Part shown: piece after piece, positions 2,152-32,722 of the stretch | Position numbering within the stretch: the stretch's first letter is position 1 | Layout: each line of letters begins with the position of its first letter | From: Escherichia coli O127:H6 str. E2348/69 | GTDB lineage: Bacteria > Pseudomonadota > Gammaproteobacteria > Enterobacterales > Enterobacteriaceae | Assembly (NCBI RefSeq): GCF_000026545.1 | Contig: NC_011601.1 | Strand: one strand, 5' to 3' | Length of the DNA: 64,000 nucleotides | The notes under the pieces: model-generated | Databases searched by the model: none | The model's input: the letters and a program-made list of their open reading frames with translations, nothing else | Told to the model about the DNA's origin: nothing | Made by a program: the position numbers and the translations under genes

Positions 2152-2157
2152 GGTTGC

Positions 2158-2186
2158 CAAAGGGAGCTGCGGCTCCCTTTTTATTT
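2158..2186 (+). terminator. Rho-independent terminator downstream of emrB
   Basis: GC-rich hairpin aaagggagc-tgcg-gctcccttt followed by T-run. Confidence 0.65.
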
Positions 2187-2408
2187 GCTCATTCTGCAAA
2201 CGGTTGTTTTATACACTCATTCGGTGTATCTTTTCGCCGCCCCAAACTCTTCCATTCACCATTAGCCGGTTCTGAGCATTCGCTCAGGTTGTTAATTCTC
2301 TTTTTCCTTCGCCCTTGCTTTCGCGGGTGATACTCACATTTTTATTTTAACCCCATAACTCGCACCCTCGCGGGCGTACATTTATTACACACAAAATAAT
2401 GGATTATT

Positions 2409-3116
2409 ATGAATACCCAACGAAAATACGGGAGAACCTGGCATTACCCCTTCTCTCCAGGCACCACCAGCGATGACCGCATTAACACCGATTACTGGCA
2501 GGATTTAAAGGCCATCACGCAATTGGTGCACACAGAAAAACTCGATGGCGAAAATAACTGCCTTAACCGCTACGGCGTGTTTGCCCGCTCCCATGCCACG
2601 CCTACGCAGTCGGCATGGACCTATAAAATTCGCCAACGCTGGCAACTGCTGAAAAACGATCTCGGCGACCTGGAGTTGTTTGGTGAAAATCTCTACGCCG
2701 TTCATTCCATTGAATACCGCGCGCTGGAACAGGACTTTTACCTGTTTGCCGTTCGCTGCCAGGATATGTGGCTGAGCTGGGAAGAGGTGCAGTTTTACGC
2801 CGCTCTGTTTGATTTCCCCTGCGTTCCCGAAATCTCCGGCCCGCAGCCGGGGAATGATGAAAAAAGCTGGCAACGTGATTTTCTGGCGCTGGCCAATGCG
2901 CGCGGCACATTCGATCCCTGGGATACGCAAACCTGGCAACCCTGTACGCTGGAAGGCATTGTCAGCCGAAATCATGATGCGTTTTCTGTCGCTGACTTTT
3001 CGCATAACGTCTTCAAGTATGTGCGCAAAAATCATGTCAAAACCACTGTGCACTGGAAACGCCACTGGCAACGGGCGCGGATGGCCCATGAGTTCGTTTA
3101 TGGAGAACAGTCATGA
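2409..3116 (+). CDS. ATP-dependent RNA ligase family protein (nucleotidyltransferase domain)
   Basis: 235 aa ORF; covalent nucleotidyltransferase motif I K-x-D-G in TEKLDGEN; ligase-like FGENLY and KYVRK motifs; no K-12 counterpart at this locus. Confidence 0.65.
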
Positions 3117-4225
3117 TTTGGCAACTTACCGACGATAAACGCTGGTCGGCGCTACGTCAGCGTTTTAGCTGGGTTGAGGAGATGCATCACACGCCACAAG
3201 ACCCTGAGCATCATGGTGAAGGCGACGTCGGCGTACATACCGAAATGGTGCTTAACGCCCTCATTACTCTGCCAGAATTCCAGCAACTCCCCGCTCAACA
3301 GCAGGAAGTTTTATGGGCGGCGGTGTTATTGCATGATGTTGAAAAGCGCAGCACTACCGTGCAGGAAAACGGACGTATTCAGTCTCCTGGTCATGCTCGT
3401 CGGGGCGAACTGACGGCCCGACAAATTTTATGGCGCGATATCCCAACGCCGTTCGTGCTGCGCGAGCAAATTGTTGCACTGGTGCGTCTGCATGGGTTAC
3501 CGCTATGGTTACTGGAACGCCCGGAACCGGAGCGTTTGTTGCTCACGGCTGCAATGCGCATCGACACGCGTCTGCTCGCTTTGCTTGCTCGTGCCGATCT
3601 GCTTGGTCGCCAAAGCCCGGATCAGCAATCAATGCTGGAACGCATCGATCTGTTCGAGCTGTTTTGCCATGAGCAACAATGCTGGGGAAAAATGCGCCCG
3701 TTCGTTTCTGATTCCGCACGCTGGCATTACCTGACCCATGAGCAAAGTTCTCCTGATTTTGTTCCCTGGGGGGCTGAACCTTTTGAGGTTATTTTGCTGT
3801 GTGGCTTACCGGGTATGGGCAAAGATCGCTATATCAGTGAACAGTGCCAGGGAATTGACGTTATCAGCCTTGATGATATGCGGCGGCGAATCAATGCCAG
3901 CCCGGATGACAAAACCGCTACCGGGCGTATTGTGCAACAGGCAAAAGAAGAGGCGCGCGTTTTTTTACGCCAGAAAAAGCCGTTCATCTGGAATGCAACG
4001 AACATTACCCGCCAGCTGCGTAGCCAGCTCATCAGTCTGTTTACGGCTTACGGCGCACGAGTAAAAATCGTTTATCTGGAAGTGCCATGGGCGCAATGGA
4101 AGCAGCAAAATGCCAGACGCGAGTATGCAGTTCCTGAAGCGGTCGTGATGCGGATGGCCTCAAGGCTGGAAGTTCCTCAACCTGATGAAGCACATAGCGT
4201 GGAGTATCGGGTGATTGAAAGGTAA
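3113..4225 (+). CDS. HD-domain phosphohydrolase fused to P-loop kinase-like domain (putative RNA end-healing enzyme)
   Basis: 370 aa ORF; start overlaps upstream stop (ATGA); N-terminal H..HD motifs ([17 protein letters not shown]); C-terminal Walker A-like [10 protein letters not shown]. Confidence 0.65.
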
Positions 4226-4247
4226 ATAAATATCCTCCGGCATAGCC

Positions 4248-5797
4248 CTGTCTCTTATACACAAATCCCCACCCGGGGATTTGTGATGTCTGTCAGTCTG
4301 CTTTAGGGGGACTCTTTCCATCCGGTAGTTTCCTTCCTCCCCGGCAGCGATTTTTTGAACTTTTTCCTCACCTGTTGATCTTCTCTTATATTTCATTTTC
4401 TTCGGGTCTGTTATGGTACTTTCTGATTGTTATTCATGGGCTAACGAGCAGTTTGGACATGCCCGTCTCGGTGATCCGCGTCGTACACGACGCCTTGTGT
4501 CACTGGCCTCTTCTCTCGCTCAGCATGCAGGTCTTTCTATTGTGAAATCATCCCAGTCCACTGCTCAGGTTGAAGGTGCGTACCGCCTGATACGTAACCC
4601 GTCTGTGTCCCCGCAAGCCATTGCCGAAGCCGGATTTACCGCCACTGTAAGGGCATGTGAGGCTCATCCGCTGCTCCTCGCGCTGGAAGACACCACCACC
4701 ATTAACTTCAGTCACAGTACGGCATCTGATGACCTGGGGAATACCACCACTAACCCGAAGACGCGCGGGCTGCTGGCTCACTCTGTCCTGATGTACGCCC
4801 CCGACAGCGCCCTGCCAGTCGGTCTTATCGAACAGCAGCGCTGGAGTCGTGCCACGGACACCTACGGTGTTAAGCACCAGCGAAAAGAACGTCCCTATGA
4901 AGAAAAAGAAAGTTACCGCTGGCAGCAGGCTTCGGAGCGCATGGCCGAACGGCTGGGGGAGATACAGAAACGGGTAATCACTGTCTGTGACCGGGAAGCG
5001 GATATCTGGCATTACCTGCATTATAAAGTCAGCCACGGGCAGCGCTTCGTGGTGCGTGCAGCACAGAATCGCCGGCTGGAAGAAGCACCCGGCAAGCTCT
5101 TCGAACTGCCGGAAGTCCTGGCAACCGCGGGAAGCCACACGCTGAATGTGATGCAAAAAGGCGGGCGGGCAGCCCGCCAGGCCCGGATGTTCATCAGTTA
5201 CAGCGAAGTCAGCATAAAAAATCCCGACAACAGCGGCCAGGCGCTCCCGCTCACGTATGTCTGTTGCCGGGAGCAGGCAGAGGACGGCGCCTGCTGGCAT
5301 CTGCTGACGTCAGAAAAAGTGGCGAGTGCCGCCGATGCGCGACGTATCGTCAGCCATTACGAGCGACGCTGGCTGATAGAGGAATACCACAAGGCGTGGA
5401 AAAGTGGTGGTACATGTGTGGAATCGCTGCGAATGCAGACCCGGGATAACCTCGAGCGCATGGTGGTTATCAAGGCGTTTATCGCGGTGCGGGTGCTGGG
5501 CCTGCGGCAGGGCGGTATCAGTGAAGAAACACAAAATGACAGCTGTGAGAAAATACTGACGCCGACAGAGTGGAAACTGCTGTGGGTTAAGCTGGAAGGA
5601 AAACCGCTTCCGTCACAGATGCCGACACTGAAATGGGCCTGTCTGAAACTGGCGAAACTGGGGCGATGGCATGACAGCAAACGCACCGGTCGCCCCGGTT
5701 GGGTAGTCATGTGGGATGGCTGGTTCAGACTTCAGGATATGGTTGAGGGTTACCTGGTGATGAAGTCTCTTGATCAGGAGATCTGATCAAGAGACAG
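4248..5797 (+). mobile_element. IS4-family IS50(Tn5)-like insertion sequence, copy 1 (1550 bp)
   Basis: Ends CTGTCTCTTATACACAAATCC and AGATCTGATCAAGAGACAG (the latter matching the Tn5 inside end as recalled); 9-10 bp duplication cggcatagcc; identical to copy 2. Confidence 0.85.
4413..5786 (+). CDS. IS4-family DDE transposase (Tn5 Tnp-like)
   Basis: 457 aa; Tn5 transposase-like motifs GDPRRT, VCDREADI, RWLIEEYHKAWKSGG, DNLERMV, DSKRTG. Confidence 0.88.
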   Translation: MVLSDCYSWANEQFGHARLGDPRRTRRLVSLASSLAQHAGLSIVKSSQSTAQVEGAYRLIRNPSVSPQAIAEAGFTATVRACEAHPLLLALEDTTTINFSHSTASDDLGNTTTNPKTRGLLAHSVLMYAPDSALPVGLIEQQRWSRATDTYGVKHQRKERPYEEKESYRWQQASERMAERLGEIQKRVITVCDREADIWHYLHYKVSHGQRFVVRAAQNRRLEEAPGKLFELPEVLATAGSHTLNVMQKGGRAARQARMFISYSEVSIKNPDNSGQALPLTYVCCREQAEDGACWHLLTSEKVASAADARRIVSHYERRWLIEEYHKAWKSGGTCVESLRMQTRDNLERMVVIKAFIAVRVLGLRQGGISEETQNDSCEKILTPTEWKLLWVKLEGKPLPSQMPTLKWACLKLAKLGRWHDSKRTGRPGWVVMWDGWFRLQDMVEGYLVMKSLDQEI

Positions 5798-5893
5798 CGG
5801 CATAGCCGGAGGTTTTTCAAATGCGCCTATAAGGCTCTCTTACCAGCCGCGCCCTAACAGGCGCACACGATCTGACATTTGCATCCAACTTCG

Positions 5894-6352
5894 TTACTTA
5901 CGGCCCGTAAACGGGCTGCCCGGATAGGGAATCGATAACTGCTCTCCCATTTTATCCTCTTCAAGCTGGTGCTTTATGTAATCCTGTATCTTCGCCGTGT
6001 TCTTACCCACCGTATCGACGTAATACCCTCTGCACCAGAACTCCCTGTTCCTGTACTTGAATTTCAAATCACCAAACTGCTCGTAAAGCATCAGACTGCT
6101 TTTCCCTTTCAGATATCCCATAAAGCCGGATACGCTCATTTTGGGCGGGATCTCCACAAGCATATGGATATGATCTGCACAGCATTCAGCTTCCAGAATC
6201 CGTACACTTTTCCACTCACACAGCTTTCTCAAAATACAGCCTATTGCTCTACGCTTCTCTCTGTAGAACACCTGTCTTCGGTATTTTGGCGCAAATACTA
6301 TGTGATATTTACAGTTCCATCGGGTGTGCGCTAAGCTCTTTTCGTTCCCCAT
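5894..6352 (-). CDS. tnpA: IS200-family transposase TnpA (Y1 HuH)
   Basis: MGNEKSLAHTRWNCKYHIVFAPKYRR N-terminus, HIHMLV HuH motif, C-terminal catalytic Tyr region; ORF 5894..6403 with start at internal Met. Confidence 0.85.
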   Translation of the reverse strand: MGNEKSLAHTRWNCKYHIVFAPKYRRQVFYREKRRAIGCILRKLCEWKSVRILEAECCADHIHMLVEIPPKMSVSGFMGYLKGKSSLMLYEQFGDLKFKYRNREFWCRGYYVDTVGKNTAKIQDYIKHQLEEDKMGEQLSIPYPGSPFTGRK

Positions 6353-6544
6353 TGGGACCCCCTTTTGATTTCTTGTTTGACACTTGCAGTTGCCAGACCG
6401 CAAGGTGTTTTAACAAATCAAAAGGGGTTTTAATAACTGGCTCAAAGCTGAAAGCTTTCCGGAACCCCCAGCCTAGCTGGGGGTTTTCTGTGCACAAAAA
6501 ACCGGGCGGTGGTGTCACCTGCCCGGCTTCTTTTGTTCCACTGA

Positions 6545-7060
6545 CTAAATGTGCAGTTCCTGCAACTTCTCTTTCGGCAGCGCCAGTTCTTCGTTGCTGT
6601 TGATGCGCACGTCACGTTCCAGAATGCTACGCGCAATATCCTGCGCTTCCTGCAACGAGTGCATCTGGTAAGTGCCACACTGGTAGACGTTCAGTTCCGG
6701 GATCTGATTCTGATCCTGCACTTTCAGCACGTCTTCCATTGCCGCTTTCCAGGCATCAGCGACACGCTGCTCATCTGGCGTACCAATCAGACTCATATAA
6801 AAACCGGTGCGGCAGCCCATTGGCGAGATATCGATAATCTCTACGCCATTACCGTTAAGATGGTTACGCATAAAACCAGCAAACAGGTGCTCCAGGGTAT
6901 GGATCCCTCTTTCTGGCATCACTTCTTTGTTCGGCACGCAGAAGCGCAGATCGAACACGGTGATTGCGTCGCCATGCGGGGTGTTCATTGTTTTCGCCAC
7001 CCGAACTGCAGGCGCTTCCATCCGGGTATGATCGACTGTGAAGCTATCTAACAACGGCAT
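6545..7060 (-). CDS. luxS: S-ribosylhomocysteine lyase LuxS
   Basis: 171 aa ORF, LuxS sequence by recall. Confidence 0.95.
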
Positions 7061-7128: not shown

Positions 7129-7205
7129 GAAAGACGCGCATTTGTTATCATCATCCCTGAATTCAGAGATGAAATTTTGGCCACTCACGAGTGGCCTTTT
7201 TCTTT
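7129..7205 (+). ncRNA. micA: MicA (SraD) small regulatory RNA
   Basis: Sequence gaaagacgcgcatttgttatcatcatccctgaattcagagatgaaattttggccactcacgagtggccttttt matches MicA by recall; terminator hairpin plus T-run; between luxS and gshA. Confidence 0.85.
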
Positions 7206-30068: not shown

Positions 30069-30436
30069 CAAATTCTCCAGCAATAACAGTTAATGCGCCG
30101 ATACATTCACAAATCATGCCAGTTTTTAATTTACTGTTATTTAAGGAAATTAAATTCTGTAATGCAGGAAAAACGATGTCATCGACACTAGTGACGATGA
30201 CATGTGATGACAGTATTTATCGTTGCCAGTCCACATCTGGGTACTTTTTTCCGACAAGTCGTTCTGGTGGTATAAAAAAGTAATTGCCAGTAACGGGGAG
30301 GATTTAAGGGAAGCAACCGTGCCGGATACGGCGTGAACAATGACCACTTTGTCAGCTATCCATATGATTGTATTTTGAGGTTCATCGCAGATTAGCGATG
30401 AACCTTTATTGTGCACAGAAAACCCCCAGCTAGGCT

Positions 30437-31986
30437 CTGTCTCTTATACACAAATCCCCACCCGGGGATTTGTGATGTCTGTCAGTCTGCTTTAGGGGGA
30501 CTCTTTCCATCCGGTAGTTTCCTTCCTCCCCGGCAGCGATTTTTTGAACTTTTTCCTCACCCGTTGATCTTCTCTTATATTTCATTTTCTTCGGGTCTGT
30601 TATGGTACTTTCTGATTGTTATTCATGGGCTAACGAGCAGTTTGGACATGCCCGTCTCGGTGATCCGCGTCGTACACGACGCCTTGTGTCACTGGCCTCT
30701 TCTCTCGCTCAGCATGCAGGTCTTTCTATTGTGAAATCATCCCAGTCCACTGCTCAGGTTGAAGGTGCGTACCGCCTGATACGTAACCCGTCTGTGTCCC
30801 CGCAAGCCATTGCCGAAGCCGGATTTACCGCCACTGTAAGGGCATGTGAGGCTCATCCGCTGCTCCTCGCGCTGGAAGACACCACCACCATTAACTTCAG
30901 TCACAGTACGGCATCTGATGACCTGGGGAATACCACCACTAACCCGAAGACGCGCGGGCTGCTGGCTCACTCTGTCCTGATGTACGCCCCCGACAGCGCC
31001 CTGCCAGTCGGTCTTATCGAACAGCAGCGCTGGAGTCGTGCCACGGACACCTACGGTGTTAAGCACCAGCGAAAAGAACGTCCCTATGAAGAAAAAGAAA
31101 GTTACCGCTGGCAGCAGGCTTCGGAGCGCATGGCCGAACGGCTGGGGGAGATACAGAAACGGGTAATCACTGTCTGTGACCGGGAAGCGGATATCTGGCA
31201 TTACCTGCATTATAAAGTCAGCCACGGGCAGCGCTTCGTGGTGCGTGCAGCACAGAATCGCCGGCTGGAAGAAGCACCCGGCAAGCTCTTCGAACTGCCG
31301 GAAGTCCTGGCAACCGCGGGAAGCCACACGCTGAATGTGATGCAAAAAGGCGGGCGGGCAGCCCGCCAGGCCCGGATGTTCATCAGTTACAGCGAAGTCA
31401 GCATAAAAAATCCCGACAACAGCGGCCAGGCGCTCCCGCTCACGTATGTCTGTTGCCGGGAGCAGGCAGAGGACGGCGCCTGCTGGCATCTGCTGACGTC
31501 AGAAAAAGTGGCGAGTGCCGCCGATGCGCGACGTATCGTCAGCCATTACGAGCGACGCTGGCTGATAGAGGAATACCACAAGGCGTGGAAAAGTGGTGGT
31601 ACATGTGTGGAATCGCTGCGAATGCAGACCCGGGATAACCTCGAGCGCATGGTGGTTATCAAGGCGTTTATCGCGGTGCGGGTGCTGGGCCTGCGGCAGG
31701 GCGGTATCAGTGAAGAAACACAAAATGACAGCTGTGAGAAAATACTGACGCCGACAGAGTGGAAACTGCTGTGGGTTAAGCTGGAAGGAAAACCGCTTCC
31801 GTCACAGATGCCGACACTGAAATGGGCCTGTCTGAAACTGGCGAAACTGGGGCGATGGCATGACAGCAAACGCACCGGTCGCCCCGGTTGGGTAGTCATG
31901 TGGGATGGCTGGTTCAGACTTCAGGATATGGTTGAGGGTTACCTGGTGATGAAGTCTCTTGATCAGGAGATCTGATCAAGAGACAG
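30437..31986 (+). mobile_element. IS4-family IS50(Tn5)-like insertion sequence, copy 2 (1550 bp)
   Basis: Same termini as copy 1; perfect 9-bp target duplication agctaggct at 30428..30436 and 31987..31995. Confidence 0.88.
30602..31975 (+). CDS. IS4-family DDE transposase (Tn5 Tnp-like)
   Basis: Identical 457-aa protein to copy 1. Confidence 0.88.
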   Translation: MVLSDCYSWANEQFGHARLGDPRRTRRLVSLASSLAQHAGLSIVKSSQSTAQVEGAYRLIRNPSVSPQAIAEAGFTATVRACEAHPLLLALEDTTTINFSHSTASDDLGNTTTNPKTRGLLAHSVLMYAPDSALPVGLIEQQRWSRATDTYGVKHQRKERPYEEKESYRWQQASERMAERLGEIQKRVITVCDREADIWHYLHYKVSHGQRFVVRAAQNRRLEEAPGKLFELPEVLATAGSHTLNVMQKGGRAARQARMFISYSEVSIKNPDNSGQALPLTYVCCREQAEDGACWHLLTSEKVASAADARRIVSHYERRWLIEEYHKAWKSGGTCVESLRMQTRDNLERMVVIKAFIAVRVLGLRQGGISEETQNDSCEKILTPTEWKLLWVKLEGKPLPSQMPTLKWACLKLAKLGRWHDSKRTGRPGWVVMWDGWFRLQDMVEGYLVMKSLDQEI

Positions 31987-32112
31987 AGCTAGGCTGGGGG
32001 TTCCGGAAAGCTTTCAGCTTTGAGCCAGTTATTAAAACCCCTTTTGATTTGTTAAAACACCTTGCGGTCTGGCAACTGCAAGTGTCAAACAAGAAATCAA
32101 AAGGGGGTCCCA

Positions 32113-32571
32113 ATGGGGAACGAAAAGAGCTTAGCGCACACCCGATGGAACTGTAAATATCACATAGTATTTGCGCCAAAATACCGAAGACAGGTGTTCT
32201 ACAGAGAGAAGCGTAGAGCAATAGGCTGTATTTTGAGAAAGCTGTGTGAGTGGAAAAGTGTACGGATTCTGGAAGCTGAATGCTGTGCAGATCATATCCA
32301 TATGCTTGTGGAGATCCCGCCCAAAATGAGCGTATCCGGCTTTATGGGATATCTGAAAGGGAAAAGCAGTCTGATGCTTTACGAGCAGTTTGGTGATTTG
32401 AAATTCAAGTACAGGAACAGGGAGTTCTGGTGCAGAGGGTATTACGTCGATACGGTGGGTAAGAACACGGCGAAGATACAGGATTACATAAAGCACCAGC
32501 TTGAAGAGGATAAAATGGGAGAGCAGTTATCGATTCCCTATCCGGGCAGCCCGTTTACGGGCCGTAAGTAA
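32113..32571 (+). CDS. tnpA: IS200-family transposase TnpA (Y1 HuH)
   Basis: Identical to copy 1 TnpA. Confidence 0.85.
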   Translation: MGNEKSLAHTRWNCKYHIVFAPKYRRQVFYREKRRAIGCILRKLCEWKSVRILEAECCADHIHMLVEIPPKMSVSGFMGYLKGKSSLMLYEQFGDLKFKYRNREFWCRGYYVDTVGKNTAKIQDYIKHQLEEDKMGEQLSIPYPGSPFTGRK

Positions 32572-32722
32572 CGAAGTTGGATGCAAATGTCAGATCGTGT
32601 GCGCCTGTTAGGGCGCGGCTGGTAAGAGAGCCTTATAGGCGCATTTGAAAAACCTCCGGCTATGCCGGAGGATATTTATTGAATAATACTATTTCGACTG
32701 AAATAACAGGTAAGGATACAAA

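Follow-up and report, generated by a model that had tools for sequence, protein, structure and literature searches.

IS200C in the terminator tract shared by a putative RNA-repair cassette and luxS in Escherichia coli E2348/69, and its interruption by ISEc13

In the 64,000-nt stretch of Escherichia coli O127:H6 strain E2348/69 that we analyzed (contig NC_011601.1; hereafter the window), the last base of the TAA stop codon of a putative kinase gene is also the first base of an IS200-like terminal sequence. How does an insertion sequence (IS) come to begin inside a stop codon, and what became of the host sequence that lay there before? According to the original prediction, the native 3' UTR and terminator of a putative RNA-repair operon had given way to the mobile elements at this joint, which might alter the expression of the operon or indicate that the cassette belongs to a mobilised island. 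We find that the observation holds in each of its parts, namely the boundary, the IS200-like nature of the element and the presence of a second element behind it, and that the claims of replacement and of a mobilised island do not survive comparison with other genomes. We are confident in reading the locus instead as a 712-bp IS200C, apparently directed to T-tracts, that was inserted within the shared A-run adjacent to the stop codon and later received an ISEc13 in the loop of its right-end (RE) hairpin. The finding itself is minor, being the correctly spotted joint of an annotated IS that disrupts no gene. It offers a worked example of an apparent overlap between an IS and a stop codon that arises from a terminator tract shared by convergent genes together with an IS that targets that tract. 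Its by-products are base-level evidence for the placement of IS200C after T-tracts, and a Tn5-like family that is found in the tips of hairpins, those of IS200C included.

In the RefSeq annotation the gene order is emrB, an RNA ligase family protein, an ATP-binding protein, ISEc13, IS200C and luxS; the two mobile elements are labelled 'IS4-like element ISEc13 family transposase' and, on the opposite strand, 'IS200/IS605-like element IS200C family transposase'. The first cassette gene (2409..3116, plus strand), the RNA ligase family gene of RefSeq, matches Pfam PF09414 RNA_ligase (E=7.6e-28). The second (3113..4225, plus strand, with its TAA at 4223-4225) encodes an HD-like/P-loop kinase of 370 aa, with Pfam AAA_33 at residues 226-355 (E=1.1e-31), weak NCBIfam matches to the bacterial Pnkp kinase, the CCA-enzyme HD region and HDIG, and PDB matches to the kinase domain of C. 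thermocellum Pnkp (4gp6 and others). The C-terminal P-loop kinase domain and the adjacent ligase are both clear from Pfam, NCBIfam and PDB; the scores of the HD domain are sub-threshold (HDIG, 16 bits against a cut-off of 27.6; CCA-enzyme HD region, E=2.4e-5). The pair is thus a candidate HD-Pnk/ligase RNA-repair cassette, a type that combines an N-terminal HD phosphoesterase domain and a C-terminal P-loop 5'-OH kinase domain with a neighbouring ATP-dependent ligase, and its kinase gene may be comparable to the HD-Pnk of Runella. The luxS gene (6545..7060, minus strand), present both in the ORF list and in RefSeq, is convergent with the cassette. Both the cassette and the ISs are missing from K-12-type strains, whose emrB-luxS gap is 63 bp long and has a different terminator.

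The IS200C copy and its boundary with the kinase gene

The sequence that starts inside the stop codon, AATAAATATCCTCCGGCATAGCC, forms the right-end terminus of a copy of IS200C with its tnpA on the minus strand. It occupies window positions 4225-4247, which aataaatatcctccggcatagcc fills exactly, and ISEc13 starts at 4248 (CTGTCTCTTATACAC...). These outer 23 nt, severed from the rest of the element by ISEc13, include the left half and loop of the RE hairpin (CCTCCGGC-ATA-GCC, 4234-4247), the right half of which (GGAGG, 5808-5812) belongs to the main body of IS200C (5808..6496, minus strand; Pfam Y1_Tnp E=1.7e-37, NCBIfam transpos_IS200 E=6.7e-43). The main body contains, all on the minus strand, tnpA (5894-6352; Y1_Tnp PF01797, with PDB matches to the TnpA proteins of IS608 and ISDra2), the 5'UTR/art200 region (6362-6485; Rfam STnc490, 146 bits) and the left-end (LE) hairpin (6463-6485). 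The left terminus reads ...CTGTGCAC(A) and its end falls at 6495-6497; after subtraction of ISEc13 and its repeat, the length of IS200C is 711-712 nt. A Y1 (HUH) tnpA is the sole gene, with no tnpB ORF in the ~712 bp of the element. The subterminal hairpins at both ends fold, the RE hairpin being intact in strain 1105 (L001 3435-3453), and there is no inverted-repeat relationship between the two ends, AATAAAT... and ...CTGTGCAC.

The element is an ordinary copy of the IS200 group of the IS200/IS605 family, annotated and already known, and its description as IS200-like was accurate. It shares with the IS200 of Salmonella and E. coli a length of ~707-712 bp, a single Y1 tnpA, a left-end hairpin (nt 12-34 in IS200) reported to act as a terminator (PMC4513863), the 5'UTR/art200 region of Rfam STnc490, and the lack of both terminal inverted repeats and a target duplication. 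Nothing essential differs in this copy, in which the RE hairpin is interrupted by ISEc13.

The boundary was aligned with the window's other IS200C copy, the corresponding locus of strain 1105, which lacks ISEc13, and eight copies elsewhere, drawn from other genomes and one plasmid. All 11 copies, at 10 loci, share the sequence from AATAAATATCC... to ...CTGTGCAC(AA), conserved from the AATAAAT that starts at window position 4225, and the base before AATAAAT varies by locus among A, C, G and T. When the uninterrupted IS200C with its flanks was used as a BLAST query, hits in foreign contexts began at query positions 125-127, where 127 corresponds to window position 4225, the third base of the stop codon. 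The multi-copy alignment and the BLAST starts in unrelated contexts thus identify 4225 as the conserved terminus of the element, in agreement with the start originally proposed at the final A of the TAA. The joint can slide by 1-2 nt, because in the filled and empty sites compared at two loci it lies within an A-run.

An alternative would place the boundary elsewhere, with AATAAATATCC...hairpin...TTTTT as the native terminator of the kinase gene and IS200 starting further in. The right end is uninterrupted in strain 1105 (L001 3426-3453), where an 8-bp GC hairpin and T5 directly after the stop codon do, taken alone, resemble an intrinsic terminator. However, IS200C copies at nine further, unrelated loci terminate in the identical sequence with the same start base. 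The sequence is absent from the IS-free cassette loci that we read, none of which has AATAAATATCCTCCGGCATAGCCGGAGG after the stop codon, and the genome search found most cassette loci as one uninterrupted piece. We give this placement of the boundary practically no chance of being correct.

The second filled and empty pair is an IS200C between sbcB and plaP, compared with Nissle 1917. There, TGA|AACAAAAAAGCC becomes TGA-A-(AATAAAT..GTGCAC)-AACAAAAAAGCC, a 712-nt insert with zero duplication that likewise lies 1 nt past the stop codon of a convergent gene. If the element is defined as 711 nt (AATAAAT...GTGCAC), the luxS locus balances (1+6 = 7 A) and the sbcB locus is one A over; with a 712-nt definition the count is even at sbcB and one A is missing at the joint in the window. 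On this strand the element would be either AATAAAT...GTGCACA or ATAAAT...GTGCACAA, and the sequence comparison places the true joint between 4224|4225 and 4226|4227. Compared with E2348/69, the LE junction of strain 1105 and its relatives is longer by three bases (AAC) and contains a C-to-T change, differences that may reflect either two insertions or a single one, with three bases of the donor flank carried along or a later mutation.

The IS-free site and the terminator shared with luxS

We searched 5426 complete genomes for empty sites with a synthetic IS-free query. The cassette is present beside luxS, at the same emrB/luxS site, in 996 of the 5426, nearly always as one unbroken 604-bp piece. 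IS200C occupies this site in only ~30 cassette-bearing genomes, and ISEc13 is there too in only three assemblies, all of E2348/69, which indicates that the ISs are late, lineage-restricted arrivals. Some 97% of the roughly 1000 cassette-bearing E. coli genomes have no IS at the site and read GGTAAAAAAACCGGGCGG....

In IS-free strains the native TAA continues directly into an A7 tract (GGTAAAAAAACCGGG...), and a strong hairpin comes next. The closest empty sites (L005, L006 and L007) read GGT-A7-CCGGGCGGTGGTGTCACCTGCCCGGCTTCTTTTGTT, that is, GGT-A7-CCGGG; with the stop codon set apart they read ...GAAAGG TAA AAAAA CCGGGCGGTGGTGTCACCTGCCCGGCTTCTTTTGTTCC..., followed by the luxS stop codon on the other strand. 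A diverged allele (L003) reads GGTAACAAAAGCCGGG. The corresponding sequence of the window is GGTA | AATAAAT...GTGCAC | AAAAAACCGGGCGGTGGTGTCACCTGCCCGGCTTCTTTTGTT / AAAAAACCGGGCGG..., in which the central part is IS200C with ISEc13 inside it. When the ends of IS200C are set at the conserved sequence, the A count at the window joint, 1+6 = 7, is equal to that of the empty site; to within one base of the homopolymer run, host sequence was neither deleted nor duplicated. The comparison with cassette genomes that lack the IS, which have the native TAA, the A7 tract and the hairpin instead, upholds the IS boundary, and none of the empty sites read shows the same 3' sequence without an IS200-like element.

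Since the empty sites already have a complete TAA, the IS neither created nor changed the stop codon. We also considered whether the insertion had created or shortened the kinase ORF, and rejected this possibility: in IS-free genomes the kinase CDS has the same 1113-nt length and the same TAA stop, and the 370-codon ORF is unchanged in the window.

The hairpin beyond the A-run belongs to luxS. The minus-strand RNA of the empty site folds with -26 kcal/mol (z=-5.6) ahead of a U7 run, or U6 in the window, as in a textbook intrinsic terminator predicted for luxS. A simple terminator scanner with a loop limit of 3-8 nt misses this structure, because the limit disallows the inner stem, and it was recovered by folding. 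On the plus strand the terminator hairpin is followed by CTTCTTTTGTT / CUUCUUUUGUU, and the shared hairpin can serve the kinase gene as a predicted terminator too. In the window, this bidirectional intrinsic terminator of luxS, formerly also that of the kinase gene, is predicted at 6496..6527 on the minus strand, with its T-tract at 6496-6501 and its hairpin at 6502-6527. The hairpin is intact; it now stands 2.27 kb from the kinase stop codon and is still directly 3' of luxS, which retains the hairpin and six of the seven T.

These comparisons bear on the idea of a replaced 3' UTR and terminator and of a mobilised island, an idea that draws on the two ISs directly after the cassette and on the K-12-type strains that lack it. 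Against replacement, the empty sites show zero host loss: with all 7 A preserved and the hairpin intact at 6502-6527, the terminator was displaced only. Against mobilisation, IS200C is found in ~30 genomes whereas the cassette sits at the same site in 996, and in most carriers no IS accompanies it at emrB/luxS; the ISs are thus no sign of its mobilisation. Furthermore, no IS or repeat is present on the emrB side of the cassette, and the insertion joints of IS200C and ISEc13 are each explained separately. We consider it very improbable that the elements replaced the 3' UTR or mobilised the cassette.

Placement of IS200C after T-tracts

If the host sequence was only moved aside, why does IS200C sit at this position? 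We surveyed the 45 nt 5' of the left end, on the transposase-sense strand, in 13 IS200 copies at 12 loci. Every one of the 13 flanks is a GC-rich hairpin with a T-tract, directly after which the element starts, and the left end is in each case preceded by a T-run ending TT. Over these 13 copies, the mean MFE is -16.6 kcal/mol for the LE flanks and -6.8 for the RE flanks. The second IS200C of the window also lies directly 3' of a hairpin and T-tract, and comparison of filled with empty sites at two loci shows that IS200C inserts without target duplication. At the locus considered here the terminator is that of luxS, with which tnpA is co-directional. The end of the IS appears inside the stop codon because the last two bases of that codon are part of the complement of the luxS T-tract, the tract that the IS targets.

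An association between IS200 and terminators is already known statistically from a 2025 preprint, which reports an enrichment of terminator-like sequences immediately upstream of ISs that is strongest for IS200/IS605. We did not find placement after T-tracts stated at the present resolution, documented here for 13 copies, in the literature that we consulted.

The known systems of single-strand 'peel and paste' transposition, with base pairing between guide and target, suggest how such a target might be read. With IS608 and ISDra2, IS200C shares a homologous TnpA, subterminal hairpins at both ends, the absence of a duplication, and insertion 3' of a short target that is kept beside the left end. 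In IS608 the target is TTAC, and it is read by a 4-nt guide immediately 5' of the LE hairpin, which base-pairs with the target tetranucleotide. IS200C differs from IS608 in that it has no tnpB and in that a T-run appears to be its target; at the inferred guide position, directly 5' of the LE hairpin, it has AAAA (GTGCACAG-AAAA-CCCCCAGC...). By analogy with IS608, this AAAA would pair with a TTTT target in single-stranded DNA, and IS200C would home through it to the last bases of terminator T-tracts. In its placement IS200C is like the group IIC introns, which insert immediately behind the hairpin and T-tract of an intrinsic terminator, oriented along the transcript that it ends; the introns do so by an RNA-based retroelement mechanism, in contrast to the single-strand DNA transposase of IS200C. 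The pattern of placement is plain in all the copies surveyed, and we infer from it that the position of IS200C reflects its target choice. Selection against insertions elsewhere, or survivorship, could contribute to the association with terminators.

ISEc13 in hairpin tips and predicted consequences at luxS

The second mobile element, correctly noticed to follow from 4248, is ISEc13, a Tn5/IS50-like member of the IS4 family of 1550 bp (4248..5797, plus strand; transposase 4413-5786). Pfam finds Tnp_DNA_bind, DDE_Tnp_1 and Dimer_Tnp_Tn5 in the transposase, with PF14706 and PF01609 above their curated cut-offs and PF02281, at 24.1 bits, just below 26.7; NCBIfam transpos_IS4_3 matches with E=2.6e-154, and the Tn5 transposase (1MUH, 4DM0) matches over the full length with E=6e-84. 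The element has the ends CTGTCTCTTATACACAA... and ...GATCAAGAGACAG, short terminal inverted repeats starting CT (CTGTCTCTT... / ...AAGAGACAG) and an internal hairpin at 4260-4285. The RE hairpin of IS200C, CCTCCGGC-ATA-GCCGGAGG, is split by it within the loop, and copies of a 10-bp direct repeat, CGGCATAGCC, border it at 4238..4247 and 5798..5807, to be compared with the uninterrupted hairpin CCTCCGGCATAGCCGGAGG in strain 1105. ISEc13 arrived after IS200C, into the loop of the RE hairpin.

A second nested pair in the window (30410..32680, plus strand) has ISEc13 at 30437-31986, 99.9% identical to the first copy, within the LE hairpin loop of another IS200C (CCCCCAGC-TAG-GCTGGGGG); the 9-bp duplication AGCTAGGCT is found at 30428-30436 and 31987-31995. 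Target duplications are 10 bp and 9 bp for these two copies and 8-9 bp at eight other loci, and the range given for the IS50 subgroup is 8-9 bp (PMC2266710).

Junctions of this kind were sought in other genomes with 40-mer queries and a 28-nt megablast word, which forces a match across the joint. IS200-ISEc13 joints number 8 in E2348/69, where ISEc13 has ~29 left ends, and 411 of the 5426 genomes have at least one. Two joints that we read, one in a chromosomal relic near dsdC and the other in a plasmid copy after parB, involve different IS200 variants and contexts and have an identical insertion point. Another E. coli chromosome provided 10 further loci with an identical transposase, most of them ~25 nt beyond a gene end. 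At 8 of the 10, an 8-9 bp duplication is centred on the loop of a perfect GC-rich hairpin; the other two have no duplication and look like exchanged flanks.

The same preference extends to relatives of ISEc13. Species-representative genomes contain 81 occurrences of its exact 23-nt left end, every one in aquatic Gammaproteobacteria. The 77 distinct left-end flanks yield a sharp profile, in which positions -19 to -14 are an A-run, -13 to -8 a GC stem, -7 to -4 an AT-rich loop and -2 a G. The A-run is present in 78% of these flanks, compared with 7% of random positions in the same loci. At the six marine sites with both ends on one contig the elements are ~1480 bp long, and for the four with a target duplication the reconstructed sites are hairpins of -21 to -24 kcal/mol. 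The orientation of the marine set, with the A-run towards the left end, is not strict in E. coli. We considered whether contamination with Nextera/Tn5 adapters lay behind the CTGTCTCTTATACACA matches in draft genomes and rejected this, as the 23-mer continues with AATCCCC, a sequence that belongs to ISEc13 rather than to the mosaic end; the two-ended elements of ~1480 bp, four of six with target duplications, also argue against it.

Apart from the copy next to the kinase gene, the family likewise lies in a hairpin tip in every case that we could reconstruct. Both end hairpins of IS200C, GAAAAA-CCTCCGGC-TAT-GCCGGAGG and GAAAA-CCCCCAGC-TAG-GCTGGGGG, match the target profile of ISEc13, including the A-run before each, and this explains why ISEc13 nests in IS200C.

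In principle, the distribution of both elements might result from near-random insertion, with the bias towards terminators and hairpins produced by selection that removed the other insertions. Neutral landing sites are available in the intergenic regions downstream of convergent genes, and the 2025 preprint reads upstream terminators as favouring IS persistence. Nevertheless, IS200 lies directly after a T-tract in 13/13 copies, with joints precise to the base; ISEc13 duplications are loop-centred at 8/10 E. coli and 4/6 marine loci and in both copies of the window; and at least 8 of the ~29 ISEc13 copies of E2348/69 occupy the same positions in IS200 hairpins. Selection alone gives no such base-level precision, which disfavours a purely selective explanation, and we regard it as unlikely. 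Both patterns more probably reflect target choice.

ISEc13 shares with IS50/Tn5 a transposase alignable over its full length (E=6e-84) and a target duplication of ~9 bp, and we take its ends to resemble the outside end (CTGACTCTTATACACAAGT) and inside end (CTGTCTCTTGATCAGATCT) of Tn5. The target consensus of Tn5 is weak, whereas nearly all insertions of ISEc13 and its relatives lie in the tips of GC-rich hairpins. Other ISs are known to seek palindromes, among them IS1397 and ISKpn1 (IS3), IS621 and ISPpu9/10 (IS110) and ISRm22 (IS4) in REP sequences (PMC1525189), as well as IS231A with the target GGG-N5-CCC (PMC2266710). Like these, ISEc13 occupies a defined position in extragenic palindromes, but its targets, in contrast to those of the REP-directed elements, do not belong to a single repeat family but are terminator-like hairpins of diverse kinds, the ends of another IS included. 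In the literature searched we found no paper describing a hairpin preference of ISEc13, and the text of 'IS4 family goes genomic' has nothing on hairpin targets for the IS50 subgroup.

We tentatively propose, while rating its chances at somewhat below even, that ISEc13 and the relatives sharing its 23-nt left end are structure-directed Tn5-type elements and that IS200C homes by an AAAA guide, the two together forming a previously undescribed two-level stack of terminator-seeking elements. ISEc13 would make a staggered cut of 8-10 bp centred on the loop of a terminator-like hairpin, usually with its left end towards the A-tract, and IS200C, which offers two such hairpins, would be disabled by it repeatedly. 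The target rules predict where both elements will be found and explain the nesting of one IS in another in EPEC E2348/69, with its ~29 ISEc13 copies. ISEc13 suggests a natural Tn5 relative with strong structural target selectivity; its hairpin targeting is of more interest than the stop-codon joint and merits a separate study.

The order of events at luxS also has implications for transcription of the cassette. The original suggestion of a change in its expression is plausible. As judged from the sequence, the kinase operon would be left without an adjacent terminator, its former one now lying 2.27 kb downstream. In strains that carry only IS200C, such as 1105, the RE hairpin and T5 directly after the stop codon fit the pattern of an intrinsic terminator and could act as a substitute. 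In E2348/69, where the RE hairpin is split, the next structure is the strong hairpin in the left end of ISEc13 (4260-4285), which has no U-tract, and cassette transcripts probably read through into ISEc13, in the sense direction of its transposase. Since a hairpin required by its transposase has been destroyed, this copy of IS200C is probably immobile and fixed in place.

Probable target choice of IS200C at terminators

A hairpin followed by a T-tract, the arrangement of an intrinsic terminator, lies immediately 5' of the left end on the transposase-sense strand in all 13 of the IS200 copies examined: the two copies in the window (left ends within 6463-6501 and 30370-30411), the copy at the luxS site of strain 1105 (L001) and those at ten other loci (L008-L017). 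Directly 5' of its left-end hairpin, IS200C carries the tetranucleotide AAAA, which by analogy with the guide-type targeting of IS608 may be a guide for a TTTT target.

A further IS200C copy is found in the sbcB-plaP intergenic region of other strains (L009 and L018), where the element lies within the A/T tract of a shared terminator, 1 nt past the stop codon of the convergent sbcB gene. Overlap with a stop codon, as seen at 4225, is thus an outcome that this target choice produces repeatedly.

At the luxS site, strain 1105 and its relatives carry the left-end junction GTGCAC-AAC-AAAAAA-TCGGG (L001 4131-4146), whereas E2348/69 has GTGCAC-AAAAAA-CCGGG (6490-6503). The T-tract may have been hit twice, in separate events; alternatively, the element may have brought three donor-flank bases with it, as at the sbcB site.

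The cassette between emrB and luxS

The two-gene RNA-ligase/HD-kinase cassette (2152-4225) stands in place of the entire 63-bp emrB-luxS spacer of K-12-type strains, with divergence starting directly after the emrB stop codon and ending at that of luxS. No IS is present on the emrB side. The cassette occupies this site in approximately 18% of complete E. coli genomes (996/5426). The annotation of O145 strains lists the kinase gene as a pseudogene, with an internal stop. The interval from luxS to gshA holds the MicA sRNA gene (7129-7200, plus strand; Rfam RF00078, 83.9 bits) at its expected position in E. coli.

ISEc13 insertion into hairpins

The 8-10 bp duplications made by ISEc13 are centered on the loops of GC-rich, terminator-like hairpins; the comparison covered the window copies, L016, L017, ten further E. 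coli loci (L100-L109) and left-end matches elsewhere (L019-L099). The same hairpin profile is found at the insertions in 8 of the 10 other E. coli loci and recurs across 77 marine Gammaproteobacteria flanks, with an A-run in 78%, compared with 7% of control positions.

Both window copies (4248-5797 and 30437-31986) are hosted by end hairpins of IS200C. E2348/69 contains eight such joints among its roughly 29 ISEc13 copies, and at least one is present in 411 of 5426 E. coli genomes. In the second nested pair (30410-32680; duplication AGCTAGGCT), ISEc13 lies inside the IS200C left-end hairpin; because a different hairpin was struck, this nesting is an event independent of that at 4225-6497.

Just within the ISEc13 left end is a strong 11-bp hairpin, CACAAATCCCC-ACCC-GGGGATTTGTG (4260-4285), which is followed by no U-tract and may dampen read-through from outside or play a role in end recognition. 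It begins with ACAAATCCCC, within the 23-nt left-end sequence that the distant relatives also carry.
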